DNA of 64,000 nt from Nitrospirota bacterium (GTDB taxonomy: Bacteria; Nitrospirota; JACRHL01): positions 1,539 through 65,538 of the forward strand of contig JAOUMB010000010.1 in NCBI GenBank assembly GCA_029881725.1, given 5' to 3'. Under the pieces are notes generated by a model. It was not told the DNA's origin. It ran no database searches and saw only the letters and a list, made by a program, of their open reading frames with translations. A program made the position numbers and the translations under genes. Shown here one piece after another: positions 3,902 through 61,793 of this stretch (the stretch's first letter is position 1; each line of letters starts with the position of its first letter).

Positions 3902-6571
<2,670 letters not shown>

Positions 6572-28410: not shown

Positions 28411-28531
28411 CGTTCCCTCTCCCAGGCAGGGGATAATCGAACCCCGGCGGGCCATCCATGGCCATGCCGGTCGGTCCACTGTTCCAGAAGATTTACATTT
28501 TGGCAACCCGGCGGGCGGGCGCAGAGGCTGT

Positions 28532-28843
28532 CTAAGCGGCGGAAAGATGGATGGAAGTGGCGGCGCAGTAGTCACATTGCATCACCAGATGCCGCTGGTG
28601 GGATTCCGTCTCGCAGTGCATGACGCCGCTCAACTGGCCACTGCCACACACCCGGCACGGTTGCTCCTGTCCGCTGTGGTCGTGGGCGCGGGAAACGGTC
28701 ACTTCCGCCTGACAGGCGGTACAGGCCGCCCGGTAGCTATCCCCCCCACTCATGCAGGTGGAATGCAGTTCCAACTCCCCGGCGCCGCAGCAGGGGCAAC
28801 TGGTGGCCGCCAGCATGATGCGGGCACTGGCCTGATGATTCAT
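28532..28843 (-). CDS. Small Cys-rich protein (putative zinc-ribbon).
   Basis: About 103 aa from ATG MNHQASARIML with a GGAGGA RBS. Cys pairs CPCCG...C..C, CRVCG, CDYC. Sits between the beta-barrel gene and the A2M gene. Confidence 0.45.
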   Translation of the reverse strand: MNHQASARIMLAATSCPCCGAGELELHSTCMSGGDSYRAACTACQAEVTVSRAHDHSGQEQPCRVCGSGQLSGVMHCETESHQRHLVMQCDYCAATSIHLSAA

Positions 28844-29035
28844 GGCGATATCCTCCGTTACACACCGTGCAATCCAGCCCGAAATGGATTCAAAATCCGC
28901 GCCATTTCCCATTTATCGGATAAAACGAAATATTCCAATGGGTTCGCTGCACACGGAATGCGGATATCGGCGAATTACGTGCATTTACGTATCCGTGTTC
29001 CGCACACTTTTGTACAACCCCCCCTGGAAGCCGGG

Positions 29036-31849
29036 TCAGAAGTCGATGCGGTAGCCCAGGGCGATGAACCAGGTTTCGGTCTTTTCGGTGGCACCGGCGA
29101 TCTTGCGGGAACTCCACGCCTGTCCCCCTTCCAGTTCGAAGCGCATGTTGCGCCCCGCCCGCCAGTCCAGACGCAACTCCGGACGCCACACGGTCTCCTC
29201 GGCGTTGTTGCGCAGGTCGTCCCGCAGGTCCAGCCGCAGGCGCGGGTTGAAGCGCCAGTTGGGGCCCGCCTGAAAACGGCTGTTGGCGGTGAAGGTAAGG
29301 GTGCGGGTAAAGTCGGTATCCGCCAGGCGCGCCCCGAGGATGGTGATGTCACCCTCCTGAAGCAGGCCGCTGGTGATGAACTGAAGGTTGTAGAAATAAT
29401 CCGGGCCGCTCTCCGGCATGCCGGGAATATCCTTAATCGGCGCTCCGGGAAGGGTGGGGTCCCCGATGGTACCCGGCGTGGCGCTCAGCTTGGTGGCGGT
29501 GATGTCGGCACTGATCTGGGTTTTCTTGGACAACGGCTTGGTGCCCCCCAGGGTGAGGGAGCGGGACAGCGGAGTGTGGTCCAGGGCGGCCTGACGAACC
29601 TGATCCTCGGTCAGCAGGGTCAGCAGTTGCTCAATGGTCGTGATCGGCGTCAGGGTGGCGGTATCCACCATCCCCTGCAATGCATTGGTGGTGGTCAGCA
29701 CCGGGCTCTTGCGGTAATCCAGCACCAGGTTCAGGGTGGTCTCGCTCTTGAAGCGCCAGTTCCCCACGAACATGATGGTGTTGTATTCCTGATAGGAACG
29801 GTCGTAATCCACCAGCGTGAAGAACGACCGGCGCTCCGAGAAGAAGCGCAGTTCGCCACCCACCGCATCGCGGTCGGAGATACCGTCCACAGTCTGTTCG
29901 ATCTTGAACAAGTTCATGTCCAGGTGATTGAACAGGGTGCCGATGTCCACGCTGACGCCGTTGAATTCGCGGCGGCGGTTGATGGTGTTGCCGGTGGAAA
30001 TCTCCACCGGATAGCCCCGCACCAGGTTGACCTTCAACCGCCCGCCCAGGTTCTGGCGCAACAGGGTGCCGTCAAAGCGCCCCAGCACACCGGAGGTGCT
30101 CAGGGTCTGCCGCCCCACACGCAGGTTGGTGCGGGTGGGCTGGAACTGGGCATCCACATAGGCGGCGGTGAGGCGTCCCTCGCTGTTGGACTGGTTGGCA
30201 AAGTCGCGCCGGTAGCCGGTGGTGATCCGGGAACGGAAATCCAGCCGGTCGCTACGGCGCCGCCAGGTGAGATCCAGATCGGTATTGAGAAGCGAAAGGT
30301 CGGTACTCACCACGCCGGTGGGGTCCGTGGTCACATCACGCCGGTAATACTGGGACAGACCGCCGAAAAAGTCCTTGTGCACCTGCCCCTGGGCGCGCGT
30401 CACCTTGCGCAGTTCCTGGCGCTGCCCCGGCCCGGCGGCGGTAATGATGCCCGCCAGACGCTGGCGCACACGGGCCGCCGCGTCGCCGTCGGGATAGCGC
30501 TCCAGAAAATCGGTATAGATCTGCTTGGCGTGGGCGAACTGCCCCTTGCGCTCGCGGGCCAGCCCCAGATACTCCAGGGCATCCTGCTGATAGGGATGAT
30601 CCGCGAAACGCAGCACTTTGGTGTACAGGCGCACGGCGGTGTCGTAATCGGAGTCCACCATGGCCCGACGGGCGTCGTCCATCAGCTTCTTGAGCAGGGC
30701 TTCGTCCCCCTTGGGCGCATCGGCCACGGCCACCGGTGCCACGGTGCGCGGCGTGACCGCATGGGCCGAAGCAGCCACCCGCTCGGCCTCGGAAACCTCG
30801 GTCACCCAGGCGCCCGGGAAGGCCGTGGCCACCCGCTGCTGAATGCGCAGCGCATCCGGTTTTTCGGCAAAGAAACCGAGACGCAACTGGTAGCGGGTGC
30901 GGTTTCCGGACCGGGTTTTGTGCACATAGAGCAGATAGCGGGCGAACTCCGGCAGATCGGGCAGTCCCGCGGCGGTGATCGGCTTGCTGTCCTGCCGCAA
31001 CTGAATGGCGAAGTTGCCCTTCGGCAACGGCACCGACGGCGCCACATTGGCCGCCGGAGCCGGTTGCGGATCCGCGGCGGGAGCCGGTTTGGGCGTGGCA
31101 GTCGGAGCCGGTTTGGGGGTGGCGGCCCGGGCCACGGTGCGCGGCTCCGGCTTGACCACCGAGCGACGGGAGGAACGGCGCTCCTTTTTGGTCACTTCCG
31201 TCACCCAGGCACCGGGAAAATCCCGGGAAAGGGCGCGCTGAACCGGGGCAGCCTCCGCCGAACTGTCGAAAAATCCGACCCGCAACTGATAGTAGGTGGT
31301 GTCGCCCCGAACCTGCTCCTCCACATACAGCCGGTGCTGCTTGAACTCCAGCCGGTCGGGCAGGTGAGCCGGATCGGGCGCGCGGGTACCGCGCCACAAC
31401 TGCACCGCGAAAATGCCATCTCCCTTTGGCTCCGGCTTGGCGTCACGGGTCCGGGTCGCCCGTCCACGCGGCTCGATGGCGCCGGCGGCGGAGTCCTTGC
31501 GCTCCTGCATCCCCACCCGGGTGATCCACGCGTCCGCGTATTCCGACAGCAGCGTCCGGCGCACCTTTTCGGCGCTCTCCATATCCGGAAAAAACCCCAG
31601 CCGCAAGCGGTACCAGGTGGTGCCGCCCTTGGTGAAGGAGGTCTGATACAGGCGGTAGTCGCGAAATGCATCCAGAGCCGGCAACGCCTTCGGATCCACC
31701 GGTTTCTTCTCCAGGGAAATCTGGATCACGTAGCCGTTGTTCAGATTCACCTTGGGCGCGGCCTGCGCGTTCGCGGCAAAGGAAAACAGCGCCGCGCAGG
31801 CGCAGAGCAGCGTCAGCAGCAGGCGGTATGGAAATGAGGTGGCGGGCAT
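29036..31849 (-). CDS. Outer-membrane beta-barrel protein with three N-terminal SPOR-like repeats and a TPR-like segment.
   Basis: Signal peptide MPATSFPYRLLLTLLCACAALFSFAANAQA. Three repeats of roughly 75 aa ending ...YRLRLGFFPDMESAEKVRRTL..AWITRV / YQLRVGFFDSSAEAAPVQRAL..AWVTEV / YQLRLGFFAEKPDALRIQQRV..AWVTEV (SPOR-like). TPR-like segment YTKVLRFADHPYQQDALEYLGLARERKGQFAHAKQIYTDFLERYPDGD. The last roughly 480 aa alternate amphipathic strands and end ...IALGYRIDF (OMP C-terminal Phe). An alternative TTG start lies at 31873. Confidence 0.8.
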   Translation of the reverse strand: MPATSFPYRLLLTLLCACAALFSFAANAQAAPKVNLNNGYVIQISLEKKPVDPKALPALDAFRDYRLYQTSFTKGGTTWYRLRLGFFPDMESAEKVRRTLLSEYADAWITRVGMQERKDSAAGAIEPRGRATRTRDAKPEPKGDGIFAVQLWRGTRAPDPAHLPDRLEFKQHRLYVEEQVRGDTTYYQLRVGFFDSSAEAAPVQRALSRDFPGAWVTEVTKKERRSSRRSVVKPEPRTVARAATPKPAPTATPKPAPAADPQPAPAANVAPSVPLPKGNFAIQLRQDSKPITAAGLPDLPEFARYLLYVHKTRSGNRTRYQLRLGFFAEKPDALRIQQRVATAFPGAWVTEVSEAERVAASAHAVTPRTVAPVAVADAPKGDEALLKKLMDDARRAMVDSDYDTAVRLYTKVLRFADHPYQQDALEYLGLARERKGQFAHAKQIYTDFLERYPDGDAAARVRQRLAGIITAAGPGQRQELRKVTRAQGQVHKDFFGGLSQYYRRDVTTDPTGVVSTDLSLLNTDLDLTWRRRSDRLDFRSRITTGYRRDFANQSNSEGRLTAAYVDAQFQPTRTNLRVGRQTLSTSGVLGRFDGTLLRQNLGGRLKVNLVRGYPVEISTGNTINRRREFNGVSVDIGTLFNHLDMNLFKIEQTVDGISDRDAVGGELRFFSERRSFFTLVDYDRSYQEYNTIMFVGNWRFKSETTLNLVLDYRKSPVLTTTNALQGMVDTATLTPITTIEQLLTLLTEDQVRQAALDHTPLSRSLTLGGTKPLSKKTQISADITATKLSATPGTIGDPTLPGAPIKDIPGMPESGPDYFYNLQFITSGLLQEGDITILGARLADTDFTRTLTFTANSRFQAGPNWRFNPRLRLDLRDDLRNNAEETVWRPELRLDWRAGRNMRFELEGGQAWSSRKIAGATEKTETWFIALGYRIDF

Positions 31850-31899
31850 GATTCGGGTATATCTTTTGTTCAATAAAAAACGATTTAAATAACGTGCTG

Positions 31900-32550
31900 T
31901 TACAGAACGGTGGATGGATCCGGCGCCGGGTCCGGAGTTGGGTCCGGAAATTCGGGCAGTATCTCCCCGGGCGCTTCCCCGGGCGCTTCCCCGGGCGCTT
32001 CCCCGGGCGCTTCCCCGGGCGCTTCCCCGGGCGCTTCCTGGGGCGCGTTTTGGGGCACTTCCTGCGGCTCCGGCTGCGGTGCCGGGAGGACGATCTCGAT
32101 GCTGCGATAATCCTTGCCCTGGCGCACGTCGAACGGCACCGCCTGATCAAAGCGCAGAATCAGATACGGGATGCCGCGCTGCTGCCCGCTCGGCTCGTCC
32201 CCTTCGGGGCCCGCGTCCCCTTCATACAGGATGCTCAGGCGCGGCAGGCCGGGCCGTTCCGGAAGCACCGCCGCCTCGCGCCCGAACAGGATGTCGTCCT
32301 CTGGGAACTGTCCGTCCGGCAGGCGGCGCACCCGCACCACCACTTCCCTGGCCGGGTCATGGGGAAAGTGGTCCACGTACTGGGCGATAAAGCGGAACTC
32401 CACGCGCACCACCAGCCCTTCGGCGGTGGTATCGATGGACACGTCCTCCATCACCCCCTGACGCACCGGCTGTGCCGCCACCGGGGCCGCAAGGCCCAGG
32501 CAGATTCCCAGCACGGCCGCCGCCAGTACGGCACCCGCATGCAAACGCAT
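31900..32550 (-). CDS. Secreted hypothetical protein with a C-terminal (EAPG)n repeat.
   Basis: Signal peptide MRLHAGAVLAAAVLGICLGLAAPVAAQP. Strong RBS GGGGAGGGG. C-terminal PQEAPGEAPGEAPGEAPGEAPGEAPGEIL. Confidence 0.6.
   Translation of the reverse strand: MRLHAGAVLAAAVLGICLGLAAPVAAQPVRQGVMEDVSIDTTAEGLVVRVEFRFIAQYVDHFPHDPAREVVVRVRRLPDGQFPEDDILFGREAAVLPERPGLPRLSILYEGDAGPEGDEPSGQQRGIPYLILRFDQAVPFDVRQGKDYRSIEIVLPAPQPEPQEVPQNAPQEAPGEAPGEAPGEAPGEAPGEAPGEILPEFPDPTPDPAPDPSTVL
31965..32036. repeat. 12-bp tandem repeat (ccccgggcgctt)x6 encoding (EAPG)n.
   Basis: Perfect 12-nt periodicity: gggcgcttccccgggcgcttccccgggcgcttcccc.... Confidence 0.85.
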
Positions 32551-32572
32551 GATGTCTTCCCCTCCCCTGTGG

Positions 32573-34348
32573 TTAAAAGGCGCTGTCGGACACGCGGTGT
32601 TGGCGTGAACGGCTGTCCAGAATGGTGGTCATGCTCGAATTCGTATACACGTGGCACGACCCCGAGCAATCCCTCAACTCCGAAACGGTGTAGTTCACAC
32701 CGGGATACTTTTCATGCGGCCCGGAGCGGTAATTCCCGGAGTGGCACCCGGCGCAATCCGGCTGATAGGCCGGGGCCCGCCAGGTGACGGTTTCGCTGTT
32801 GGAACCGTGGCAGCGGGTGCAGGCCAGCGCCAACCGGTGGTCGCCCGGATAGTTCGGGGACTGGTGGCGGAAGGTGTCCGGAATCCAGGCGGTGGTGGTA
32901 TGGCAGTAGTCGCACGAGCGGCCGGTCTGGAAGTGGGTGCTGGTCTTGCCGGTGGCGTTGGTGCCGTTGTGGCAGGAGTTGCAGGTGCCGGGCGAAACGT
33001 TGGCGTGATCGAACCGGGCCGGCAGCCAGGCCACGGTGGAGTGGCAACTGTCACAACTGGCGGTGGTCTGCACGTGGGTAGCCGTCTTGCCGGTGGCGGT
33101 AATGCCGTTGTGGCAGGTGGAACACGTGCCGGGGGCCACCGCGCTGTGATCAAAAGAGGCCGGGATCCACGCGTTGGTGGTGTGGCAGTTGTCGCAGGTG
33201 TTGTCGCTGGCCACGTGGGTGGCATGTTTGCCGATGGCGGTGGTGCCGTTGTGGCAGTTGAAACAGGTGCCGATCACTTCCAGGTGGTCCACCCGCAGGG
33301 CCGGGATGAACGACACCGTGCTGTGGCAGGCTTCACACAGGCTGGATGTCTGGATGTGGGTGGCGTTCTTGCCGATGGCGGTGGTGCCATTGTGGCAGCT
33401 GAAACAGCCGCCGGTCACCTGGGCGTGGCTGAACACCGCGTTGGCCCAGGCGGCGGTGGTGTGGCAGTCGCCGCAGAGGTTGCTGCTCGGGATGTGGGTG
33501 GCACTCTTGCCGGTGGCAATGAGGCCGTTGTGGCAGGTGGAACATTCCCCGAGCACATCCGCGTGGTCCACGCGGGTAACGGTGGCAAAGCTGGTGGTGT
33601 TGTGGCAGCTTTCGCAGAAATTGGTGGTCAGCGGGTGCGCTGCGTGCTTGCCGGTGGCGGTGGTGCCGTTGTGGCAGGTGGAACAACTGCCGGTCACGCC
33701 GGTATGGTCGAAGCGCGCATTGAACCAGGTGGTCGGCGTATGGCAGTCCTCGCAGACGTTGCTGCTGGGAATGTGGGAAGCCGATTTACCGCTGGCGTCC
33801 ACGCCGTTGTGGCAGCGGAAGCAGTTGCCCACGATGCCGGTATGGTCGAAACGGATCATGCCCCAGGCGGTGGTGGTGTGGCAGTCGCTGCACGGGGCGC
33901 TGGTTTGCGGGTGGGTCGGGGTCTTGCCCGGGGCCACGGTGTTGTTGTGGCAACTGGCGCAACTGCCCAGCACGGAGGCGTGGTCCACCCGCGCCACCGG
34001 GTTCCAGCTGTTGGTGGTGTGGCAGTCGCCGCAAAAGTCGGTGCTCTGGATGTGGTTCTGCGGCTTGCGCGATCCGCTCACCCGCCCGGCGCGGGTGTGG
34101 CAGGCGGCGCACTGGGTGGGGGTGGTCTCGAAGATGCCGCGGATATGGCAGCTTTCACACTCCACCTGCTGGTGCGCGCCGGTCAGCGGAAAACCGCTCT
34201 TGAAGTGGTCGAACTGGGGGCGCCCGGACAGCTGGGCCGCGTCGGACATGGCCGGAATCAGCCAGGTGGCCAGCAGCGCTGCCGCCAGCAGGAGTACCCC
34301 CCACCAGCTCCCGAAGACCCCATCGGATGTGCTTTTATGATGCATCAT
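32573..34348 (-). CDS. Periplasmic multihaem c-type cytochrome with about 21 CXXCH plus 1 CXXXCH (paired/doubled CXXCH repeats).
   Basis: 591 aa with a signal peptide. Haem motifs counted: CESCH, CAACH, CGDCH, CASCH, CSDCH, CFRCH, CEDCH, CSTCH x3, CESCH, CGDCH, CFSCH, CEACH, CFNCH, CDNCH, CDSCH, CNSCH, CDYCH, CTRCH, CAGCH, CSGSCH. Repeating module C..CHT..W....FDH..V.G.C..CHNG.TA.GK..H. RBS GAGGT. Confidence 0.9.
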   Translation of the reverse strand: MMHHKSTSDGVFGSWWGVLLLAAALLATWLIPAMSDAAQLSGRPQFDHFKSGFPLTGAHQQVECESCHIRGIFETTPTQCAACHTRAGRVSGSRKPQNHIQSTDFCGDCHTTNSWNPVARVDHASVLGSCASCHNNTVAPGKTPTHPQTSAPCSDCHTTTAWGMIRFDHTGIVGNCFRCHNGVDASGKSASHIPSSNVCEDCHTPTTWFNARFDHTGVTGSCSTCHNGTTATGKHAAHPLTTNFCESCHNTTSFATVTRVDHADVLGECSTCHNGLIATGKSATHIPSSNLCGDCHTTAAWANAVFSHAQVTGGCFSCHNGTTAIGKNATHIQTSSLCEACHSTVSFIPALRVDHLEVIGTCFNCHNGTTAIGKHATHVASDNTCDNCHTTNAWIPASFDHSAVAPGTCSTCHNGITATGKTATHVQTTASCDSCHSTVAWLPARFDHANVSPGTCNSCHNGTNATGKTSTHFQTGRSCDYCHTTTAWIPDTFRHQSPNYPGDHRLALACTRCHGSNSETVTWRAPAYQPDCAGCHSGNYRSGPHEKYPGVNYTVSELRDCSGSCHVYTNSSMTTILDSRSRQHRVSDSAF

Positions 34349-34393
34349 CGGTTTACCTCAGTGCGCGCCCGCAACCGGCCAATAAAAATTCGA

Positions 34394-35983
34394 TCACCGT
34401 TCAATGGTGATATCGGAAAACGACTCGGTGGTGTGGCACCGGCCGCAGTCTCTTCCAAACTGTTCGCTGTGGACATCGTCCTGCAGGTGACAGGCACCGC
34501 AGGTGTTGGGCTGTTTGACACCCTTTTTTGAGGGCGTTTTGTGGCACGCGAGGCAGTCCAACCCCTCGTGCTTGCCGTCCAGCTTGAACTCGGTCTGCCG
34601 GTTGTGGTCAAAGGACCACAGGGGCCACCCGTTGGGGTTGTGGCAGGTGCCGCACAGGCTTCCCAGCCGCCGTTTGTGCTCGTCCTGCTTCTTGTGGCAG
34701 GCATAGCACTCCCCTTCGGTTTTCACGTAGCGCCGGTCCAGGTGGCACTCCTCGCACGGGGTGACCGCGTGCTGGCCGATGAGCGGAAACGGCGTCAGGT
34801 CGTGGTCAAAGCGCACCTGATCCCGCCATCCGGTTTCCCGGTGGCACTGGGCACAGTTTTCGCCCTGGCGCCCGTCGTGCACGTCGTCCCCCTTGTGGCA
34901 GGCATAGCAGTCGGTCTTGAGCTCCTCCTTGTACAGCACCCCCTTGTGACAGGACCGGCAACGGGCCTTTTCGTGGGCGCCCTTCAGGCGGAAATCGGTG
35001 TCCTTGTCGTGGTCGAAGATCACCCGGTCCCACGCCCTGGGCGTGTGGCAGGAGTCGCATTTCTCCCCGTAGCGCCCCTTGTGCTCGTCGTCGTTCTTGT
35101 GGCAACTGTGGCAATCGGTCTTGAGTTCGTCCTTGTACAGGTCGCCGGTATGGCACGCTTTGCAGGTGACCTCCTTGTGGCTGCCCTTCAAGGGAAAATC
35201 GGTGTCCTTGTCGTGGTCAAACCGCACCCGGTCCCACTTGTCCGGGGTGTGGCAATCCTCGCACTTGTCGCCGTTGGCGCCCCGATGCACGTCGTTGATC
35301 TTGTGGCAGGCGACGCAGGTGTCGGGCACCCCCTTGTACTTCTCTCCCGGGTGACACATGGCGCAGGCCACGTCCATATGGGAGTCCCTGAGGGGGAAGT
35401 CGGTCTTGTCGTGGTCGAAGGCGGTTTTCTTCCAGCCGGCGGTGGAGTGGCAGTCCTCGCACTTTTCCCCCAGCCGCCCGTCGTGGGCATCGTCTTCCTT
35501 GTGGCAGGCAAGACAGGTGGCGGGGGCATCGCGGAACTTCTTGTCCGGCTTGTGGCAGCCGTCACAACGCACGCGCTGATGGCGTCCCTTCAGGCGGTAA
35601 TCGGTCTGGTTGTGATCGAAGGTTTCGCGGTTCAGGCCCACGACATCGGCACTCCGGCCCACGTGATCGGTGTGGCAGACCTGACACTCCTGATTCGCCA
35701 CCTGGGGGGAACGGCCGTGAAACCCGCGTTTTTTACCCACGTCGGACGCCACATCCTTGTGGCAGTCCAGGCACAGGTTGTTCTGCACCCCCTTGCTGAA
35801 CCGTTTGTGGCAGTTGGTGCAGGTGTCCTCGTACTTGGCGTGCCCGGAAATCAACTCGCCGGGCATTACCAGCCGCTCAAGCGGACCGGCGAGGGCGCTA
35901 TGGGGAAACGTCAGCACAGCCATGATAAAAAGCGCCAGCGCCGCTACCAGGGCGCGCCGGACGAAAAAATGCCGGTGCGGCAT
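34394..35983 (-). CDS. Periplasmic multihaem c-type cytochrome with about 21 CXXCH (polymer of c7/c3-like trihaem units).
   Basis: Signal peptide MPHRHFFVRRALVAALALFIMAVLTFPHSALA. 21 CXXCH motifs, from CTNCH through CGRCH. Repeating module C..CH..D.H.G..G..C..CH......W....FDH..T.F.L.G.H....C..CH. Its ATG overlaps the stop of the upstream gene (TGATG). Confidence 0.9.
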   Translation of the reverse strand: MPHRHFFVRRALVAALALFIMAVLTFPHSALAGPLERLVMPGELISGHAKYEDTCTNCHKRFSKGVQNNLCLDCHKDVASDVGKKRGFHGRSPQVANQECQVCHTDHVGRSADVVGLNRETFDHNQTDYRLKGRHQRVRCDGCHKPDKKFRDAPATCLACHKEDDAHDGRLGEKCEDCHSTAGWKKTAFDHDKTDFPLRDSHMDVACAMCHPGEKYKGVPDTCVACHKINDVHRGANGDKCEDCHTPDKWDRVRFDHDKDTDFPLKGSHKEVTCKACHTGDLYKDELKTDCHSCHKNDDEHKGRYGEKCDSCHTPRAWDRVIFDHDKDTDFRLKGAHEKARCRSCHKGVLYKEELKTDCYACHKGDDVHDGRQGENCAQCHRETGWRDQVRFDHDLTPFPLIGQHAVTPCEECHLDRRYVKTEGECYACHKKQDEHKRRLGSLCGTCHNPNGWPLWSFDHNRQTEFKLDGKHEGLDCLACHKTPSKKGVKQPNTCGACHLQDDVHSEQFGRDCGRCHTTESFSDITIER

Positions 35984-38145
35984 CAGTACATGTGTACCGC
36001 GAGCACGTGGATCAGCGCCGTAAACACCATCATCAGGAACAGGGGAAAGTGCAACAGGTGCCACAGGCCAAAAATCCGTTCGTAAAAGCCGAACTCCGCC
36101 ACCGAATGCACGGAGCGGTAGTATTCCTTAAAATGCTTGCGCAACGCCTTGCGATGGCGCGACAACGTCTTGCGGTCCCACCCGTCCTGCTCGGCGCGCT
36201 GCTTCAGGGCCACCCGCGCCACGCGCCGGATGCGCAGCCGGGTCCAGATGGTCCGAGGGCGCACGGTGAGCAGCCGCCAGGTGCGGCCAATCACCCCGGT
36301 GGGGGCGTTCAGCCACTTTTCCAGCCGCAGCAACCGCTCATTCATCTCTTCGGGAAATTCGATGTCCCCCTCCAGTGTACCGTGCGCGGATTTCAAACCC
36401 ATGCGCATTTCGGCGGCGGTGGCGCGGCGCCCATACAGGCCGTGATGGATCTTGGTGTACATGAATCGCCCGAACAGGCCGCTGAAGGCCACCACCAGCA
36501 TGGTGAACAGGGCGATCTGGCTGTTCAGGGAACCCAGGGCGAAATTGGAATGGAATACCACCAGCAGCGGCCCCACCACCCCCATGATCATGTGGGTCTG
36601 GAACCAGTACTTGACCGGTCCCATGCGGCGCATGAAATTCATTTTCTTGCGCATGGGGTAGAGCAGCAACAAGGCCATCATCACCGCCCCGGCAATGCCC
36701 AGGTAGTAACCGGTACCGGTTTCGGCGGACAGGTAGCCGGTCTCGCGCTGGGTCCATCCATACAGGGTGGCGCCGAACACGGCAAACATGAACAGCCCCC
36801 ACCCCAGACCGGAGGAAGCATCCGGAACGGCGGGGTCGTTGGCCGGGCGCGGTTCGGGAACCGGAATCGGACTGGCCTTGGCGGCCGGAACCGCAGCGGC
36901 CTTCTTGGCCTTCGGCGCACCATCCTGGCCACCCCCACCGGAACGGCCGGACGGCACGTGCGGGCGGCCGGGGCCACCGGACTTGCGCGCCGGGGTCGAG
37001 GCACATTGCTGGACCTGCGGGGCCGGGTCCGCCGCCGGAGCCGACACGGGCACCACCTGGCTGGCGGCTTCCTTGGAACGCACTGCGGACACCGTCGCGG
37101 CCACCTGAGCGGCCAGGGAGTCCTGGGGTGCAACCTGAGGCACGGCAGCGGGTGTCACCTGCGGCGCGGGCGTGGAAATTTTGGGAATGGCCACCCTGGG
37201 AGTGGCCTGGGGCGCCGGGGCGGGCACGGTCTGGGCGGCGGGCTTCACCGTCACCACCGCAGCCGCACGGGCAGCGGGAAGTTCACCCGGATTGCGGGCC
37301 GCATCGATAATCGCCTTTAACGCAGCCGCGTTGCGGTCCGGCGCCTCCGCCGGGGTACGGGCAGCCGCCACCAGTTTACGGACTGCGGCTTCACGCCCGG
37401 CCTCCTGAGTGGACTGGGGGGTGGCCGCCTTCGAGATCGCGGCGGTCGATGTCGGTTTCGGAACGGCCATCTTGGGGGCAGCGGCCTGCGGGGCAGCCAT
37501 CTTGGGGGCAGCCGCCTGCGGAGCAGCCATCTTGGGGGCAGCGGCCTGCGGAGCAGTCATCTTGGGGGCAGCCACATTATCGCCCAGCGTCATTGCCACC
37601 AGGCGGGCCATTGCCTCGCGCCGGATCGCCTGACGCGCGGCGGTTGATTGGGTATCTTCTATGGCGGTATCCGCCGGGGCCTGGGCAGCGGTTTGTGCCT
37701 GCACCGCGTCCATGATGCGTTCGGCTTCATCTCCAAACGCCACCGACAGCAGCATGGCCAGTTGCTCGCGGGTGGAGCGGGAACGTTGCGGCAACGGAGG
37801 CGCCGGCTGAGGCGCGGCGCCGGAACCAATCGGACCCTGAATGTGGCCGCCAGGCGGCGGCCCGATCAAGCCCGACGGGGTTCCCGAACCGCTCCCAACC
37901 CGACGCGCGATTTCCGAAGCGTGCTCGCCAAAGGCCAGTGACAGAAGGGATTCCAGCTCCGCACCGGATACCGGCTCCCCTTTCAACGGACGCGATTCCA
38001 CATCCAGACCAAAGAAATCGCCCTTCATCGGACCGGCATCGTCCAGGCTGCCCCAGCCTCCCGGGTGAACCCGGGAACCGGTGCGGTCAGACGACGGATC
38101 AAAGGATTCCAGTGCGTCCATATCCATGCCGGAAAAATCTTCCAT
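35983..38145 (-). CDS. Membrane protein with a roughly 440-aa Ala/Pro-rich low-complexity N-terminal region and a C-terminal 5-TM domain carrying two bis-His helices (ferric-reductase/cytochrome-b-like).
   Basis: 720 aa. Strong RBS GGGAGGTG plus ATG MEDFSGMDMDAL. In-frame (KMAAPQAAAP)n repeat. TM helices: GWGLFMFAVFGATLYGW; YYLGIAGAVMMALLLLYP; YWFQTHMIMGVVGPLLVVFHSNF (two His 14 residues apart); IALFTMLVVAFSGLFGRFMY; WHLLHFPLFLMMVFTALIHVLAVHMY (two His 14 residues apart). Confidence 0.65.
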   Translation of the reverse strand: MEDFSGMDMDALESFDPSSDRTGSRVHPGGWGSLDDAGPMKGDFFGLDVESRPLKGEPVSGAELESLLSLAFGEHASEIARRVGSGSGTPSGLIGPPPGGHIQGPIGSGAAPQPAPPLPQRSRSTREQLAMLLSVAFGDEAERIMDAVQAQTAAQAPADTAIEDTQSTAARQAIRREAMARLVAMTLGDNVAAPKMTAPQAAAPKMAAPQAAAPKMAAPQAAAPKMAVPKPTSTAAISKAATPQSTQEAGREAAVRKLVAAARTPAEAPDRNAAALKAIIDAARNPGELPAARAAAVVTVKPAAQTVPAPAPQATPRVAIPKISTPAPQVTPAAVPQVAPQDSLAAQVAATVSAVRSKEAASQVVPVSAPAADPAPQVQQCASTPARKSGGPGRPHVPSGRSGGGGQDGAPKAKKAAAVPAAKASPIPVPEPRPANDPAVPDASSGLGWGLFMFAVFGATLYGWTQRETGYLSAETGTGYYLGIAGAVMMALLLLYPMRKKMNFMRRMGPVKYWFQTHMIMGVVGPLLVVFHSNFALGSLNSQIALFTMLVVAFSGLFGRFMYTKIHHGLYGRRATAAEMRMGLKSAHGTLEGDIEFPEEMNERLLRLEKWLNAPTGVIGRTWRLLTVRPRTIWTRLRIRRVARVALKQRAEQDGWDRKTLSRHRKALRKHFKEYYRSVHSVAEFGFYERIFGLWHLLHFPLFLMMVFTALIHVLAVHMY
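37440..37575. repeat. 30-bp tandem repeat, about 3.5 copies, inside the membrane-protein gene.
   Basis: Unit catcttgggggcagc(g/c)gcctgcgg(g/a)gcag(c/t). Copies start near 37468, 37498, 37528 and 37558. Encodes KMAAPQAAAP repeats on the minus strand. Confidence 0.75.
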
Positions 38146-38571
38146 TTCACCTCCCGAAGTCCTCGCAAACGGCGGTCCCTGCCCAATCCCGGTTTAGTAA
38201 GCAAGGAATATGCCATGCATCGGATCTCAAGCAAAGGTGTCTTTTTTTCAACACCTTGTGCCCCTCCCCCCCTGCCCGTTTCTGGCGTCCACTCAACGGG
38301 AAATGGTGCATTTCTACGCGGAGGGAAGTCAATTTTTGCACACGGTGTTCAAAATCGAACGAACTCCCCGCACCCCGCCCCGAATTGTACACGCCATCCA
38401 CCCACGTACTTGGTTGGACGATCCGGATGACCGAAAAGTTCCCGGTACCGGGCCAGCGGGGAGTCATCTCCGTTCCCGAATGGCAAAAAATATGCAGAGG
38501 ACTTCCAAGCCGCCGACCGGTGCGGTTACCATCTAGATGGAGTCCGAACGGGGGAGGCGGAGAGGAGAACT

Positions 38572-39921
38572 TTGGAAAAACTGCCGATTGGTCCGGAAAT
38601 TCTGGGCAAGCTGCCCTTCGACCCGGAATTGCTGATCTATATCGTCCCGCTGGTGGTGATCTTTCTTTTTTATGCAGGTCGCCGCTCCAGCGCCCACAAA
38701 AAAAGCAGCCGGGTCCTGCGCGAAAACCTGGAGGCGGGCCTCACCGAACCCGCATCGTTGCATCCGCTCATCGACGAGTCTCGTTGCATCGGTTGCGCCT
38801 CATGCGTCACCGCCTGCCCGGAGAGCAAATACGAGGTGCTGGGCATCGTGCACGGCAAGGCGGAACTGATCAACCCCACCGCCTGCATCGGCCACGGCGC
38901 CTGCAAGACCGCCTGCCCGGTGGATGCCATCACCCTGGTGTTCGGTACTGAAAAACGCGGGCTGGACATCCCCAACGTCAAACCCAACTTCGAAACCAAC
39001 ATCCCCGGACTGTTCATTGCGGGGGAACTGGGTGGCATGGGCCTCATCGGCAATGCCGTGGAGCAGGGCCGCCAGGCCATGGACAACATTGCCAAACTGT
39101 CCGGCATGGGCAAGGGCGACGGGTACGACGTGGTGATCGTGGGGGCCGGACCATCGGGCTTTTCCGCCACCCTGGGCGCCATGGAAAAGAAGCTGCGCTA
39201 CCTGACCGTGGAGCAGGATTCCCTGGGCGGCACCGTATACAACTTTCCACGCGGCAAACTGGTCATGACCCGGCCGGTGGACCTGCCCATCGTGGGCAAG
39301 GTCAGGTTCACGGAAACCACCAAGGAAAAATTGCTCGAGTTCTGGACCGACGTGGAAAAAAAGACGGGGGTCAAAATCAGTTACAAGGAACGGGTGGACG
39401 ACATCACCCCCTCCGGCAAGGGGTTCGTGGTCAAAACCAGCAAGGGCACGTACAAGACCCGTGCGGTGCTGCTGGCCATTGGCCGCCGGGGCACCCCGCG
39501 CAAGCTTGATGTGCCGGGCGAGGAAACTCCCAAGGTCACCTACCGGCTGATCGACCCGGAGCAGTACACGGGCCAGCATGTGCTGGTGGTGGGCGGCGGC
39601 GACAGTGCCCTGGAGGCCGCCACCAGCATCGCCGATCAGGCCGGTACCACGGTAACCCTGTCCTATCGCAGCGACGCCTTCGGGCGCGCCAAGGGCAAGA
39701 ACCGGGAGCGGGTGGACGCCGCCGTGGCAGCCGGGCGCCTGAATGTGATGCTCAAAAGCACGGTCAAGGAAATCACCCCGGACAAGGTGGTGATCGACCA
39801 CGACGGCACCCTGCACACGCTCAGCAACGACGCCATCATCGTGTGCGCCGGCGGCATCCTGCCCACCGGATTCCTGAAACAGATCGGCATTCAGGTGGAC
39901 ACCAAATATGGCACCGCCTGA
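38572..39921 (+). CDS. Membrane-anchored 2x[4Fe-4S] ferredoxin-domain FAD/NAD(P)-binding oxidoreductase (thioredoxin-reductase-like fold).
   Basis: TTG start preceded by GAGGAG. N-terminal TM helix LLIYIVPLVVIFLFYAG. CIGCASCVTACP and CIGHGACKTACP (two CxxCxxCxxxCP clusters). Dinucleotide motifs DVVIVGAGPSGFSA and HVLVVGGGDSALEAA. Confidence 0.8.
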   Translation: MEKLPIGPEILGKLPFDPELLIYIVPLVVIFLFYAGRRSSAHKKSSRVLRENLEAGLTEPASLHPLIDESRCIGCASCVTACPESKYEVLGIVHGKAELINPTACIGHGACKTACPVDAITLVFGTEKRGLDIPNVKPNFETNIPGLFIAGELGGMGLIGNAVEQGRQAMDNIAKLSGMGKGDGYDVVIVGAGPSGFSATLGAMEKKLRYLTVEQDSLGGTVYNFPRGKLVMTRPVDLPIVGKVRFTETTKEKLLEFWTDVEKKTGVKISYKERVDDITPSGKGFVVKTSKGTYKTRAVLLAIGRRGTPRKLDVPGEETPKVTYRLIDPEQYTGQHVLVVGGGDSALEAATSIADQAGTTVTLSYRSDAFGRAKGKNRERVDAAVAAGRLNVMLKSTVKEITPDKVVIDHDGTLHTLSNDAIIVCAGGILPTGFLKQIGIQVDTKYGTA

Positions 39922-41944
39922 CGCCGCACCCCCTTCCCGGCGCTGGTGGCCCGTCGCCGTCCTTTTGCTGCTGATGCTGCCCCTGTCCCTGCCCGCCCCG
40001 GCGCTGGCGGACCCCATGGATGACGTGAAGGCCGCCGTGCGCCTGCGCGACTATCCACGTGCCATCCGGCTGCTGACCCCCATTGCGGAAAAGGGCGATG
40101 CCGAGGCCCAGTACCAGCTCGGCTCCCTGTACCGCTCCGGACGCGCCGGGGACAATCCGAAGGCCGCGTTCCGCTGGCTGCTGGCCGCCGCCCAGCAGGG
40201 GCACGCCAAGGCGCAGTATTCGGTCGGCACCCTCTATGAAACGGGCACGGGGGTGGAGCAGAGCGCCGACCGTGCCCTGGTGTGGTATCAGAAGGCTTCC
40301 GCCCAGGGACACGACGGGGCCCAGACCCGCGCCGAAGCCCTCCAGGGTACCCTCGGAAGTAAAAAGGACCGTCCCAGCCGTCAGGAATTGACCGCGGCCC
40401 TTCTGGCCGCCGCCGAGAGCGGGGATGACCGCGAAGTGCGCAGGCTCCTGAAACAGGGGGGCGACGCCAACGCCACCGACGCCGCCGGGCACTCCGCGCT
40501 GATGAACGCCGCCGCCCAGGGGCATCTCAAGGTGGTGCGGATTCTGCTCAAGGCGGGCGCCAAGCCCAACCTGGCGGACAAATACGGGGATACCGCCGTC
40601 ACCCTGGCCGCCCGCCACGGGCGTCCGCGCACCCTGGTCGCCCTGCTGGACGCCGGGGGCGATGTCAACGCCACCGACGGCAACGGCAACACCCCCCTGA
40701 TCCTGGCGGCGCTGCACGATCACGCCAAGACCACCGAGTTGCTGATCAAGGCCCGCGCCCGGCTCAATACCCGGAACAAGAACGGAGAAACCGCCCTCGA
40801 CGTGGCCGTGCGCAAGGAGCACCGCAAGCTGGTCGCCCAGTTGGAAGCGGCGGGTGCCACCCGCACCGCACAGGCGGCGGAACCCGCCATACCTCAGTCC
40901 GTGGAGGCGCTGGAGGCGTTGCAGGCCGGCGGCGACGACGCCCTTTACGCGGGGTGGTCCACCCTGGCGGTGGCCGCCTGGCGTGGTCAGGCGGAGGCCA
41001 TGAAAAAGCTGCTGGCCCAGGGCGCCAGGGTGGACGCCCGCGACCCGGAGGGGCACACCCCTCTGAGCCGCGCCGCGTGGCAGGGCCACCTGGAAGCGGT
41101 CAACCTGTTGCTGGCCCGCAAGGCCAACCCCAATGCCTACCAGAAAGACGGCCGGAGCCCCATCCTGTGGGCAGCGGAAAACGGTCACACCGAGGTGGTG
41201 ACCGCCCTGCTCAAGGCCGGTGCCCGCGCTGGAGAGCGGCAGGGCAAGGATGGCGACAGCGCCTTGATGCTGGCGGTGCAGAAGGGCAGCGCCGAAACCG
41301 TGGAGGTGCTGCTGAAGGCCGGAGCCGATCCCAACATGGCCCTGCCCGACGGCGAAACCGCGCTGCTGCGCGCCGCCGCCCGCGGCAGCCTGGGAATCGT
41401 CCGCCAATTGCTGGCTGCGGGGGCCCAGGTGAATCATCGGGACCAGGATGGCCGTACCGCCCTCTGGTTCGCCGCCAATGCCGGCGCGGTCAAGACCTGC
41501 GGCGTGCTGCTGGGCGCCAGGGCCAATGTGGCCTACGTGGATGCCTCCGGTCACACGGCCCTGTCGCGGGCCGCCCTCGGTGGACACTCCGGGGTAATCG
41601 CCGCGCTGCTGAAACAGGGAGCCCAGCCCGACACACGCACCCGGGAGGGAAACACACCCCTGTTGCTGGCCGCCTCCGAAGGGCACCTGGAGACGATCCA
41701 GCGCCTGCTGGAAGCAGGCGCCAAGGTGAACACCCAGAACGAGGCCGGAGACACCGCCCTGATCCGCGCCGTCATCGGTCGCCATCCGCGCGTGGTAGGC
41801 TTGTTGCTCAATCAGGGGGCCGATCCGAAGATTCGCAACAAGAAGCGGCAAACCGCCCGCTCGCTGGCAGAGGAATCCGGGGACGAAAACCTGATCCGCG
41901 TGTTCGAAAAGCCGGAAGGCAAAAACCTGCTCGACCTGTTTTGA
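39908..41944 (+). CDS. Secreted protein with N-terminal Sel1-like repeats and about 14 ankyrin repeats.
   Basis: Signal peptide MAPPDAAPPSRRWWPVAVLLLLMLPLSLPAPALA. Sel1 units AQYQLGSLYRSGRAGDNPKAAFRWLLAAAQQGHAKAQYSVGTLYETGTG.... ANK consensus repeated, for example DAAGHSALMNAAAQGHLKVVRILLKAGAKPN, DGNGNTPLILAALHDHAKTTELLIKARARLN. The ATG overlaps the upstream stop by 14 bp. Confidence 0.85.
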   Translation: MAPPDAAPPSRRWWPVAVLLLLMLPLSLPAPALADPMDDVKAAVRLRDYPRAIRLLTPIAEKGDAEAQYQLGSLYRSGRAGDNPKAAFRWLLAAAQQGHAKAQYSVGTLYETGTGVEQSADRALVWYQKASAQGHDGAQTRAEALQGTLGSKKDRPSRQELTAALLAAAESGDDREVRRLLKQGGDANATDAAGHSALMNAAAQGHLKVVRILLKAGAKPNLADKYGDTAVTLAARHGRPRTLVALLDAGGDVNATDGNGNTPLILAALHDHAKTTELLIKARARLNTRNKNGETALDVAVRKEHRKLVAQLEAAGATRTAQAAEPAIPQSVEALEALQAGGDDALYAGWSTLAVAAWRGQAEAMKKLLAQGARVDARDPEGHTPLSRAAWQGHLEAVNLLLARKANPNAYQKDGRSPILWAAENGHTEVVTALLKAGARAGERQGKDGDSALMLAVQKGSAETVEVLLKAGADPNMALPDGETALLRAAARGSLGIVRQLLAAGAQVNHRDQDGRTALWFAANAGAVKTCGVLLGARANVAYVDASGHTALSRAALGGHSGVIAALLKQGAQPDTRTREGNTPLLLAASEGHLETIQRLLEAGAKVNTQNEAGDTALIRAVIGRHPRVVGLLLNQGADPKIRNKKRQTARSLAEESGDENLIRVFEKPEGKNLLDLF

Positions 41945-46109: not shown

Positions 46110-47498
46110 TTAGTTCAACCGGATCTCGGTGATCATGCCACCCCTGTTGTCCACTCCCAGGCCTGCCTGGCGATCGGCCAGAGACAGGTTTGCCTGGGTG
46201 TCCAGTTCGCGCCCGTACAGAAAATACGTTCCCGGAGCCAGCCCCGTGGTGTCCAGAATCACGTCCATCTCTTCCCCCCCGGCCAGCGCCAGGGCTGAAC
46301 GATGGTAGGAAAGGTCGGTGCCCGGAACGCCACCCGGGCCGTCCGGTCCGCGCAGGATCTTGGCATCCTTGCCCACCACGTGCATGGGAATGCCCGGGAT
46401 GACCAGCGAGTGCGAACGGTAGGTCAGGTTGTTGAGGCGCAGCAGGATGCGCTGCCCCACATTGGCCGTAATCAGCGACGAATACGGCTGGGCGATATAG
46501 TCTTCCTTGTAGGCGGAAGCGCCGTTCAGCATGACGTTGGCAGCCGGATCCGGCGCCGCCGGGAGTAATGTCTCCGGATAGGCACGACCGTTGAAGGTGT
46601 AGTAGTTGGCCTTGAACTCGGCCCACACGTTGCGCCCTTCCGCCACGGTCTCCAGATTATGGTGCTTGTCCGCGTCCAGGTCGTGCATGTGAATCACCTG
46701 GGCCACGTCATACCGGGTGTTGGGCGCGGCGCCGCCATCGTTGTAGGCGAAGAACTGCCCGGCGGCCGGGTTGTTCTGGGCCGGATTGACGATAATCGTG
46801 CCCACCATGCCCAGGGCGATGTGCTCCGTCGGCTCCACGTGGCAGTGGTAGCCGTAGGTGCCCGGATCGTTCAACTTGTAGAAATAGGTAAAGTTGCTCG
46901 AAGGTGGAACCGCAACCGACATCTCTGGCACCCCGTCAAACGCCGAAACCGCGTGTGCATACCCGTGGAAGTGGACCGTATGCGGGTCCGCCAGGTCGGG
47001 GCGCACCAACAGCCCGAGGTTGGTGATCGTCAGATAGAGGGACTGTCCCTCGTCCACTTCAATATCGGGTGCCGGAAGCGTAGCCTTGAATTTATAGTCG
47101 ATCAGGTCTGCCTCGGGCACTCCCGTCAGGTCCATGAATCCGAAAATGAACAGGTTGCTGCCGTCCGGCATCTTCACATAGCCGTCGGTGGTGCCCACCC
47201 GACGGCATACCGCCGTGGGGTCGATGGGCAGGCCACTCTTGTGGTTGTACGCGCCGTCGCCGTTCCAGTCGATGTCCTCGGCACCCGGGGTTGCGCTGTA
47301 GCCCGGAGCGGCGGGGTCCAGGGACCAGTCGTACGGCATGTTGTCAATATCGTTGGGGCACTGCATGCCCGTGCCCAGGGAAACCGGAGCGGTAACGGCC
47401 CAGGAGTCGGTGGCTCCGGCCAGCCCGGTGGCGGCCATGGCCAGCCCGAGGATCATGGTTTTGGCCAGATTCCATTTGTTGGAGCGCCGCGGCTTCAT
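46110..47498 (-). CDS. Multicopper-oxidase / NirK-like cupredoxin protein with an apparently complete set of copper ligands.
   Basis: Signal peptide MKPRRSNKWNLAKTMILGLAMAATGLAGA (possible Tat-like RR). HTVHFHG (HxHG), YGYHCHVEPTEHIALGMVG (H-C-H...H....M type-1 site), later VIHMHDLDADKHH. RBS GGGGAG. Confidence 0.8.
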   Translation of the reverse strand: MKPRRSNKWNLAKTMILGLAMAATGLAGATDSWAVTAPVSLGTGMQCPNDIDNMPYDWSLDPAAPGYSATPGAEDIDWNGDGAYNHKSGLPIDPTAVCRRVGTTDGYVKMPDGSNLFIFGFMDLTGVPEADLIDYKFKATLPAPDIEVDEGQSLYLTITNLGLLVRPDLADPHTVHFHGYAHAVSAFDGVPEMSVAVPPSSNFTYFYKLNDPGTYGYHCHVEPTEHIALGMVGTIIVNPAQNNPAAGQFFAYNDGGAAPNTRYDVAQVIHMHDLDADKHHNLETVAEGRNVWAEFKANYYTFNGRAYPETLLPAAPDPAANVMLNGASAYKEDYIAQPYSSLITANVGQRILLRLNNLTYRSHSLVIPGIPMHVVGKDAKILRGPDGPGGVPGTDLSYHRSALALAGGEEMDVILDTTGLAPGTYFLYGRELDTQANLSLADRQAGLGVDNRGGMITEIRLN

Positions 47499-47659
47499 CT
47501 CAAATTCTCCCCGCATCAGGTCGATCTTGCGGGTGGCCGGGCACAGGTTCAGATTCCCGGTGTTCTCTGCTTTTGAATCTTGTTTCATACTCAGTCCAAC
47601 CCTTGGTCACACAAAAAAGAGGGGGTGGGGGTGGCCGAAGCCACCCCCACCCGTTGGGG

Positions 47660-61680: not shown

Positions 61681-61793
61681 GTTCACCACCTCGTTCCTCA
61701 CCGGAGTCATATTCATATTCCTTGCCCCCGAAATCCTCTGGGTACGGCTTTGCAGCCCGTCACGCCGGTCACACATACCATTCCGATCCATGA

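Follow-up and report, generated by a model that had tools for sequence, protein, structure and literature searches.

Porin-cytochrome clusters of the PCC3 type encode some of the largest multihaem cytochromes (MHCs) known, and we know of no PCC3 component that has been characterised. Here, one such cluster is described in a stretch of 64,000 nt from a Nitrospirota bacterium (GenBank assembly GCA_029881725.1, contig JAOUMB010000010.1, positions 1,539 to 65,538 of the forward strand), which is called the window throughout. Family membership, motif invariance, synteny and predicted topology show that a 720-aa protein encoded on its reverse strand is the inner-membrane subunit (IMP) of a PCC3-type porin-cytochrome cluster. 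The core of this protein adds a member to a family that was defined by bioinformatics in 2017; the protein's 443-aa N-terminal tail is new, and makes this IMP a new architectural variant.

He et al. (2017, PMC5566968) described the PCC3 IMP as a protein of about 300 aa with five transmembrane (TM) helices, a WX3HX13H motif on TM3 and on TM5, and an SGXXG motif on TM4, whose gene neighbours code for a porin and two MHCs, one periplasmic with a median of 21 haems and one extracellular. The authors noted the likeness of the His pairs to those of the ferric-reductase domain and proposed, by analogy with that domain and with cytochrome b, that the four His bind two b haems; the di-haem idea for the gene considered here has thus already been published and is not new. 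Later literature calls PCC3 "functionally unverified".

The window protein matches the IMPs of Sideroxydans lithotrophicus ES-1 (Slit_0870 and Slit_1446) in its five TM helices, both WX3HX13H motifs (W514-H518-H532 and W695-H699-H713) and SGXXG. The genes next to those of the ES-1 proteins likewise encode a porin and two large cytochromes, one of them periplasmic with 21 haems, and the ES-1 proteins carry no functional annotation. The difference lies in length, 720 aa in the window versus about 300 aa; the core alone is about 280 aa, so that the architecture differs and the core does not.

Results

Conserved core of the inner-membrane protein

The gene and the parts of its core are as follows:
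35983..38145, reverse strand: PCC3-type IMP gene with long N-terminal tail, 720 aa (open reading frame)
35986..36816, reverse strand: core, aa 444-720, with five TM helices, of which TM4 and TM5 are separated by a basic, helical, cytoplasmic insert of 120 aa (AF2, hydropathy, charge)
36550..36615, reverse strand: TM3, aa 511-532, W514-x3-H518-x13-H532 (H518 and H532 in 121/121, W514 in 116/121)
36469..36483, reverse strand: SGLFG, aa 555-559, the SGXXG motif in TM4 (S555, G556 and G559 in 121/121)
35986..36075, reverse strand: TM5, aa 691-720, W695-H696-x2-H699-x13-H713-x4-H718 (the four His and W695 in 121/121)

A search with the last 291 aa returned 406 homologues at E <= 1e-3, from which 120 listed sequences supplied the homologue properties given below; counts out of 121 refer to an alignment of 121 sequences. 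Among the 120 matches listed, lengths range from 267 to 446 aa and identities to the core from 37 to 50%. The closest genome-resolved relative is L004 (JAOUFN010000029.1), a metagenome-assembled genome (MAG) labelled Nitrospirota that has the same seven-gene synteny and whose IMP is 65% identical over the core.

An initial annotation, made from the sequence of the window, had placed two His about 14 residues apart in each of two helices. These pairs are present as H518/H532 in TM3 (which reads YWFQTH518...VVFH532SNF) and H699/H713 in TM5 (WH696LLH699...IH713VLAVH718MY); TM5, credited there with two His, actually holds four (H696, H699, H713 and H718). When conservation was checked, the four candidate ligands proved invariant in all 121 sequences, together with H696, H718, S555, G556, G559, W695, R499, K500, N541 and P701, and H567 (36445-36447, reverse strand) is kept in 119 of 121. 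H567, H696 and H718 are conserved His beyond the four that two haems require, and H718 lies third from the C-terminus, on the periplasmic side.

The AF2 model of aa 430-720, built on the 121-sequence alignment (pLDDT 89.1, pTM 0.79), predicts TM helices at about 444-465, 477-492, 511-532, 540-567 and 691-719, the first four being 16-27 residues long, in agreement with hydropathy. Between TM4 and TM5 the model contains three cytoplasmic helices followed by one helix of 62 residues (658-719); TM5 makes up the last third of this helix. Because of their charges (+6 for loop 2-3; net +14, with 28 K/R, for the 120-aa loop 4-5), both loops are placed in the cytoplasm, which puts the N-terminus inside and the C-terminus outside. 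TM3 and TM5 are parallel in this predicted topology; H518 and H699 are 7-8 residues in from the cytoplasmic boundary, with H532 and H713 14 residues further out. The suggestion that the His pairs stand in register across the bilayer is supported by the positive-inside rule, by which each pair is predicted to have one His towards either membrane face, at depths that match between the two helices; their predicted positions are in the register expected of two stacked bis-His haems. The window IMP contains no CXXCH motif.

Formal membership of the ferric-reductase, b561 or DUF4405 families, to whose His spacing the initial annotation had pointed, is not supported, as no Pfam threshold was passed and no NOX, STEAP or MsrQ structure appeared among the fold matches. 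In particular, the whole 720-aa protein has no match in Pfam (E <= 0.1) or NCBIfam, PDB searches returned nothing below E 0.05 with the single sequence and nothing below E 0.5 with the family profile, and Foldseek of the core model against the PDB gave nothing significant (best E 0.14). No six-TM fold superposable on solved NOX or STEAP domains was found, and hhalign of the family profile was not significant against E. coli MsrQ (E 0.41, reported probability 0.14) or E. coli YodB (E 0.3, reported probability 0.2).

The 121 family members were also scanned against Pfam at E <= 1, and the 25 families matched most often were examined. Ferric_reduct (PF01794) is absent from these 25 and does not match the window protein. 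The sub-threshold matches were to DUF4405 (PF14358; the most frequent, 14/121, best E 0.0094), Ni_hydr_CYTB (PF01292; 6/121, best E 0.0063) and PepSY_TM (5/121); no member exceeded the gathering score of DUF4405 or Ni_hydr_CYTB, and the window protein matched neither at all. We take all three to be di-haem cytochrome b families of one Pfam clan, in which case the only recurrent weak Pfam matches appear to be to di-haem cytochrome b families. Overall, the PCC3 IMP family has no Pfam or NCBIfam model and no solved relative, and its sequences read as a distantly related, still unclassified branch of the di-haem cytochrome b proteins that may be ferric-reductase-like in working, and is not demonstrably a member of that family.

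Ferric-reductase proteins (PF01794: NOX/SpNOX, FRE, STEAP and MsrQ-Fre) resemble the IMP in a bis-His pair on each of TM3 and TM5, the two His separated by 13 residues, and in an N-terminus placed inside; the window IMP differs in having five TM helices rather than six and a 120-aa cytoplasmic insert before TM5. Proteins of the DUF4405 and b561/Ni_hydr_CYTB families (CybB 5oc0, HyaC, FdnI) are helical-bundle membrane proteins that hold two b haems through TM His, as is predicted for the IMP, which would differ in using two helices with two His each rather than four helices.

Cluster genes and the linked flavoprotein

The genes of the cluster that flank the IMP gene are as follows:
34394..35983, reverse strand: periplasmic multihaem cytochrome (MHC529), 529 aa, signal peptide, 21 CXXCH (82/83 loci)
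32573..34348, reverse strand: second multihaem cytochrome, 591 aa, 21 CXXCH and 1 CX3CH, presumed extracellular PCC3 MHC (75/83 loci)
31900..32550, reverse strand: 216-aa secreted protein with C-terminal (PGEA)n (open reading frame, signal peptide; homologue in 18 loci)
29036..31873, reverse strand: outer-membrane porin-like protein, 945 aa, three N-terminal SPOR domains and TPR (Pfam; barrel putative)
38572..39921, forward strand: FerPyr, 449 aa, N-terminal membrane anchor, 2x[4Fe-4S] ferredoxin and TrxR/YpdA-like FAD/NAD(P)H domain without CxxC (Pfam, NCBIfam; divergent from the IMP gene)
39908..41944, forward strand: Sel1/ankyrin protein, 678 aa, signal peptide, 2 Sel1 and many ankyrin repeats (Pfam; 68/83 loci)

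Synteny was surveyed by tblastn at 83 loci from Gamma- and Alphaproteobacteria, Thermodesulfobacteriota, Nitrospirota and Nitrospinaceae, several of which are incomplete; the hosts include sulfur oxidisers, methanotrophs, Nitrospirota and symbionts. The IMP gene is linked to the 21-haem cytochrome in 82 loci, the second cytochrome in 75, FerPyr in 74, the ankyrin/Sel1 gene in 68 and the porin-like gene in 48, where the C-terminal part of the porin-like protein is conserved at the same position. The order in the window (IMP, 21-haem cytochrome, 591-aa cytochrome, 216-aa secreted protein, 945-aa porin-like protein) recurs in related loci. Exactly 21 CXXCH motifs were counted in the 529-aa protein, in line with the earlier description of a 21-haem cytochrome and equal to the haem count of the PCC3 periplasmic MHC. 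Compared with published PCC3 clusters, the porin-like gene of the window has three SPOR domains, and the locus set adds FerPyr and the ankyrin/Sel1 gene. SPOR and TPR domains on the porin are not described in the accessible part of the PCC3 literature.

Conservation within the cluster is highest for FerPyr (54-79% identity versus 37-65% for the IMP), whose gene lies either divergent from the IMP gene or directly upstream of it on the same strand, in the order FerPyr-Ank-IMP-cytochrome. A hydrophobic N-terminal segment followed by a K/R stretch was present in all 65 FerPyr sequences scored, with a Kyte-Doolittle (KD) value of at least 1.6 in 52; because of this conserved N-out/C-in anchor and the K/R stretch, the redox domains are expected to face the cytoplasm. 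The ferredoxin domain contains seven Cys (C72, C75, C78, C82, C105, C111 and C115), and H108 replaces the second Cys of the second FeS motif (residues 105-116, C-x2-H-x2-C-x3-C-P). The seven Cys and H108 are kept in at least 98% of 66 FerPyr orthologues, and the second motif suggests a His-ligated [4Fe-4S] cluster. Such clusters typically lie at inter-protein electron-transfer surfaces, as do the distal cluster of [NiFe] hydrogenase and FS4C of [FeFe] hydrogenase. The flavin domain has no redox-active CxxC, and the closest solved relatives of FerPyr are YpdA/Bdr and TrxR-type FNRs. FerPyr homologues also occur in Amphritea japonica and Thiogranum longum, two cultivable bacteria.

The FerPyr and ankyrin/Sel1 genes overlap by 14 nt, and the ankyrin/Sel1 protein of the window is predicted to be periplasmic from its Sec signal peptide. 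Neither gene is mentioned in the PCC3 literature as far as it could be searched, and to that extent the flavoprotein/ankyrin linkage is an unreported PCC3 feature.

Discussion

Proposed route of electrons and its alternatives

Taken as a whole, the reading of the gene as a PCC3 IMP di-haem wire with an NAD(P)H-flavoprotein partner and a long cytoplasmic tail has an even chance of being correct. The core most likely binds two b haems stacked across the membrane, an inner haem held by H518 (TM3) and H699 (TM5) near the cytoplasmic face and an outer haem held by H532 and H713 near the periplasmic face, and would thereby serve as an electron wire through the membrane. On the periplasmic side, electrons would pass between this wire and the 21-haem cytochrome, which the second, 21/22-haem cytochrome and the porin-like protein would connect to the outside. 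The initial annotation had proposed a membrane protein with two b haems as the inner-membrane electron port of the operon; this proposal agrees with all of the comparative evidence and is supported, with haem binding predicted.

Further, the cytoplasmic partner of the wire is most likely the membrane-anchored NAD(P)H/FAD/2x[4Fe-4S] protein FerPyr and not the quinone pool. The chain would run from NAD(P)H through FAD, two FeS clusters, inner haem b and outer haem b to the 21-haem cytochrome, and on to the outer cytochrome and porin, so that IMP and FerPyr together would form a split NOX-like or MsrQ-Fre-like system. NOX-type systems carry electrons through the membrane, from an NAD(P)H flavoprotein in the cytoplasm to an acceptor in the periplasm or outside the cell, and in E. 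coli MsrQ-Fre the dehydrogenase is a separate protein, as is proposed here for IMP and FerPyr. Unlike the dehydrogenases of ferric-reductase systems, the putative dehydrogenase FerPyr has two FeS clusters and a TrxR-type rather than an FNR-type fold. The role proposed for the IMP, connecting inner-membrane or cytoplasmic redox pools to periplasmic multihaem cytochromes, is the pathway role of CymA/ImoA, CbcL and ImcH in the Mtr/Mto and Geobacter systems. Of these, CymA/ImoA and ImcH belong to the c-type multihaem quinol dehydrogenases, and CbcL is a fusion of a HydC-like cytochrome b with a c-type domain; by contrast, the window protein lacks CXXCH and shows no sequence similarity to any of them (Pfam, NCBIfam).

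We infer that haem is bound, that the flavoprotein is the partner and which way the electrons flow, and the split-NOX step is drawn from gene neighbourhood, topology and what the IMP conserves on its cytoplasmic side (the 120-aa basic insert, H567 and H696). Outward flow from NAD(P)H to an extracellular acceptor is the most plausible direction, because it is downhill and aided by the membrane potential. An electron sink also fits better than lithotrophic iron oxidation, because electrons moving inward to NAD(P)+ would have to go uphill and counter to the membrane potential; the down-regulation of PCC3 on Fe(II) in S. lithotrophicus ES-1 agrees with an electron-sink model.

PCC3 clusters span several phyla in the locus set. 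For their link to cell metabolism, the published model assumes the quinone pool. FerPyr, as the most conserved and most constantly linked neighbour of the IMP, provides a concrete, testable alternative to that model, and this partner hypothesis would matter for the field of extracellular electron transfer. If the split-NOX arrangement is correct, the physiology shifts from energy-conserving iron oxidation to an outward electron sink, in which cytoplasmic reducing power is dumped straight onto extracellular acceptors. The IMP family, with more than 400 members, is in any case a well-defined target for curation and structure work.

Several points weigh against the proposed route. Haem b in the IMP family is a prediction, as no member is known to have been purified; the assignment of ligands is uncertain because seven His are conserved where four suffice; and what connects the IMP to the flavoprotein is gene neighbourhood. 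Among the loci with full 10-kb flanks, four (L017, L025, L053 and L073, and no others) hold the IMP and cytochromes without FerPyr, and the locus set is without Betaproteobacteria, the group in which PCC3 was defined. Moreover, PCC3 has been proposed for Fe(II) oxidation, which means inward flow, for which a direct NAD(P)+ route would be energetically unfit, and the published model links the IMP to quinones (He et al. 2017, PMC5566968).

That published model is also the strongest alternative, and is possible although less probable than the flavoprotein-fed wire. According to it, the IMP is a di-haem cytochrome b wire coupled to the quinone pool through a quinol/quinone site like that of bc1 cytochrome b, HyaC/FdnI or CymA-type proteins, so that the respiratory chain takes up electrons from extracellular Fe(II) or minerals, or gives electrons off, and the flavoprotein and ankyrin proteins serve maturation, regulation or a side branch. 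Besides the four loci without FerPyr, it draws on the weak matches of some members to Ni_hydr_CYTB, a quinone-reactive cytochrome b family of hydrogenases and formate dehydrogenases, and on the invariant SGxxG, N541 and Y563 of TM4, which could line a pocket for a quinone. However, no quinone-site motif and no significant similarity to any quinone-reactive cytochrome b was found, and quinone coupling leaves unexplained both why the gene for an anchored NAD(P)H FeS flavoprotein should be the cluster's most conserved and most constantly linked one and why the IMP has a 120-aa basic cytoplasmic domain with extra His on the cytoplasmic side (H567 and H696).

It is improbable that the conserved His are not haem ligands at all, and that the IMP is instead a membrane metal-binding or His-box enzyme or transporter (with a di-iron or Fe/Cu site), or a protein that helps to assemble or anchor the giant cytochromes. 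The seven conserved His do exceed the need of two haems, H518, H567, H696 and H699 cluster at the cytoplasmic ends of TM3, TM4 and TM5 in a loosely His-box-like manner, and neither a family threshold was passed nor a fold match found among solved haem proteins. Yet two x13 His pairs at matching depth on parallel helices, each following WX3, are a di-haem signature, di-haem families are the only recurrent weak Pfam matches, and the His lie at both membrane faces, unlike those of His-box enzymes.

The flavoprotein-fed wire can be extended to the whole cluster, though this extension is tentative and somewhat doubtful. PCC3 would then be a seven-to-eight-gene, quinone-independent, split NOX-like machine whose His-ligated exit cluster feeds the IMP, with the ankyrin/Sel1 protein possibly aiding a periplasm-spanning wire and the tail recruiting or regulating a cytoplasmic partner.

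The N-terminal tail

The features of the tail and of the gene start are as follows:
38150..38155, reverse strand: Shine-Dalgarno GGGAGG, 4 nt 5' of the ATG at 38145-38143
36817..38145, reverse strand: N-terminal extension, aa 1-443, predicted cytoplasmic and mostly disordered (no signal peptide, K/R-rich stretch before TM1)
37891..37968, reverse strand: helix motif 1, aa 60-85, ELESLLSLAFGEHASEIARRV (conserved versus L004; predicted helix 61-84)
37708..37794, reverse strand: helix motif 2, aa 118-146, RSTREQLAMLLSVAFGDEAERIM, repeating the motif 1 pattern (20/29 identical to L004; helices predicted at 125-155)
37459..37572, reverse strand: 30-bp tandem repeat, 3.8 copies, 91% match, encoding AAPKM(A/T)APQA in an Ala/Pro linker (Tandem Repeats Finder, in frame)

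The 720-aa open reading frame and its GGGAGG ribosome binding site (RBS) are present as first annotated, as is the in-frame 30-bp repeat, and an identical 720-aa gene call was found on an ENA metagenome contig. The initial annotation had regarded the first 440 aa as disordered. This holds in part: in the full-length AF2 model 295 residues have pLDDT <50, and residues 171-440, of which 29% are Ala and 15% Pro, include no aromatic residue, while some 160 N-terminal residues hold conserved helical motifs. Helices are predicted at 61-84, 125-188, 246-284 and 343-359.

The view that the N-terminus is translated stands, on motif conservation in L004 and on a divergence biased to third codon positions. 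The L004 IMP is also long (687 aa, L004 4344-6407), its ATG (at 4344) stands at the position equivalent to the window start, and GAGG lies upstream of that ATG too. Residues 41-160 align with L004 at 40-62% identity, and one motif is conserved in two copies between the two proteins, as ELESLLS-x-x-FGEHA-x-EIARRV and RSTR-x-QL-x-MLLSV-x-FG-x-x-AER, as is a CASTPARK...PSGR stretch at aa 381-401. In motif 1, 21 of 24 residues are identical, 14 of them encoded by different codons, and across aa 60-85 the mismatches per codon position are 0.08/0.08/0.62. This pattern indicates purifying selection on this reading frame, and the open reading frame is therefore not a product of chance. The comparison thus shows the tail, at the level of sequence, to be translated.

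The two proteins diverge in the Ala/Pro-rich middle, where L004 carries a repeat of another sequence (AAPAAKVQ) in the same place. An exhaustive HMMER search with aa 1-430 against 1.84 billion representative proteins gave one true relative, P0121 (E 6e-15), which differs from the L004 protein solely by one in-frame 8-aa unit in the AAPAAKVQ linker. The difference in unit count between these two database entries is a repeat-number polymorphism. The other 17 HMMER matches were rejected as relatives of the tail, as they matched just the Ala/Pro repeat. The tail thus appears, from these searches, to be shared with one other lineage only (L004/P0121).

The remaining alternative, that the long N-terminus arose from mis-annotation in a high-GC genome and that the true start lies shortly before TM1 as in the homologues of about 300 aa, is highly improbable and was rejected: the 120 homologues listed have a median of 36 aa before TM1 (maximum 171), the GC content at third codon positions (GC3) falls to 0.72 in the tail versus 0.84 in the core and neighbouring genes, and other frames of the tail region also hold long open reading frames, but there is no ATG between aa 226 and TM1, a strong RBS precedes the far ATG, L004 shares the architecture, start and codon-position bias described above, the L004/P0121 repeat-number difference is in frame, and L004 shows the same GC3 dip. 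Because of that shared dip and the Ala/Pro-rich composition, the lower GC3 is suggested to belong to the region rather than to mark non-coding DNA.

Overall, the tail is lineage-specific and, by prediction, cytoplasmic and mostly disordered; it is modelled as a conserved helical module of two or three amphipathic helices on a flexible Ala/Pro tether of about 250 aa, and presumably serves as an arm for docking or regulation. In a search for cytoplasmic partners, the long-tailed variant would be a natural handle.

The window tail is the longest seen in the IMP family. Unrelated K/E/A/P-rich tails of 150-290 aa occur in four MAG loci of Thermodesulfobacteriota/'Deltaproteobacteria', three of them behind a GAGG-type RBS, and a short motif before TM1, GP(K/S)CDL, is common to three of the four. 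Because four further loci carry unrelated tails, a variable cytoplasmic tail appears to recur in the IMP family. The tailed IMP orthologues are as follows:
L083, 7984-8910
L077, 9341-10000
L027, 4804-5328
L038, 9524-10000

Further, a 446-aa family member (P0096) has an N-terminal extension of about 170 aa, YALRLGLYKSRRTAQAALDNL..., which looks SPOR-like by eye and has no match in a Pfam scan.

Gene junction and flanking genes

The IMP gene meets the cytochrome gene in the overlap that had been annotated initially:
35981..35985, reverse strand: TGATG stop/start overlap, IMP to 21-haem cytochrome gene (sequence)

The two genes share one A (IMP TGA at 35985-35983, cytochrome ATG at 35983-35981), and the overlap is consistent with translational coupling. 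A hairpin across the TGATG junction, a candidate attenuator or coupling device, is no better than in shuffled sequences (z -0.68). A promoter and terminator scan of 28400-38700 gave no convincing candidate, and an Rfam scan of the whole 64,000-nt window gave no match.

The 216-aa secreted protein is encoded between the second cytochrome and the porin-like gene, a position that its homologues share in 18 loci, and its (PGEA)n is encoded by a perfect 12-bp repeat of 6.9 copies (31964-32046). In the porin-like protein, the SPOR (peptidoglycan-binding) domains are separated by Pro/Ala-rich linkers. Directly downstream of the porin-like gene, a 2016-aa bacterial alpha-2-macroglobulin is encoded (22525-28575, reverse strand; bMG3, MG2, bait region, A2M, bMG10). 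Two further genes of the window encode multicopper-oxidase proteins: a 2459-aa protein (54412-61791, reverse strand) with an N-terminal multicopper-oxidase domain, SdrD_B, PKD and beta-helix domains and a C-terminal dockerin, and a separate 492-aa multicopper oxidase (46110-47588, reverse strand). Together with PCC3, these two proteins hint at extracellular metal redox chemistry in this organism.

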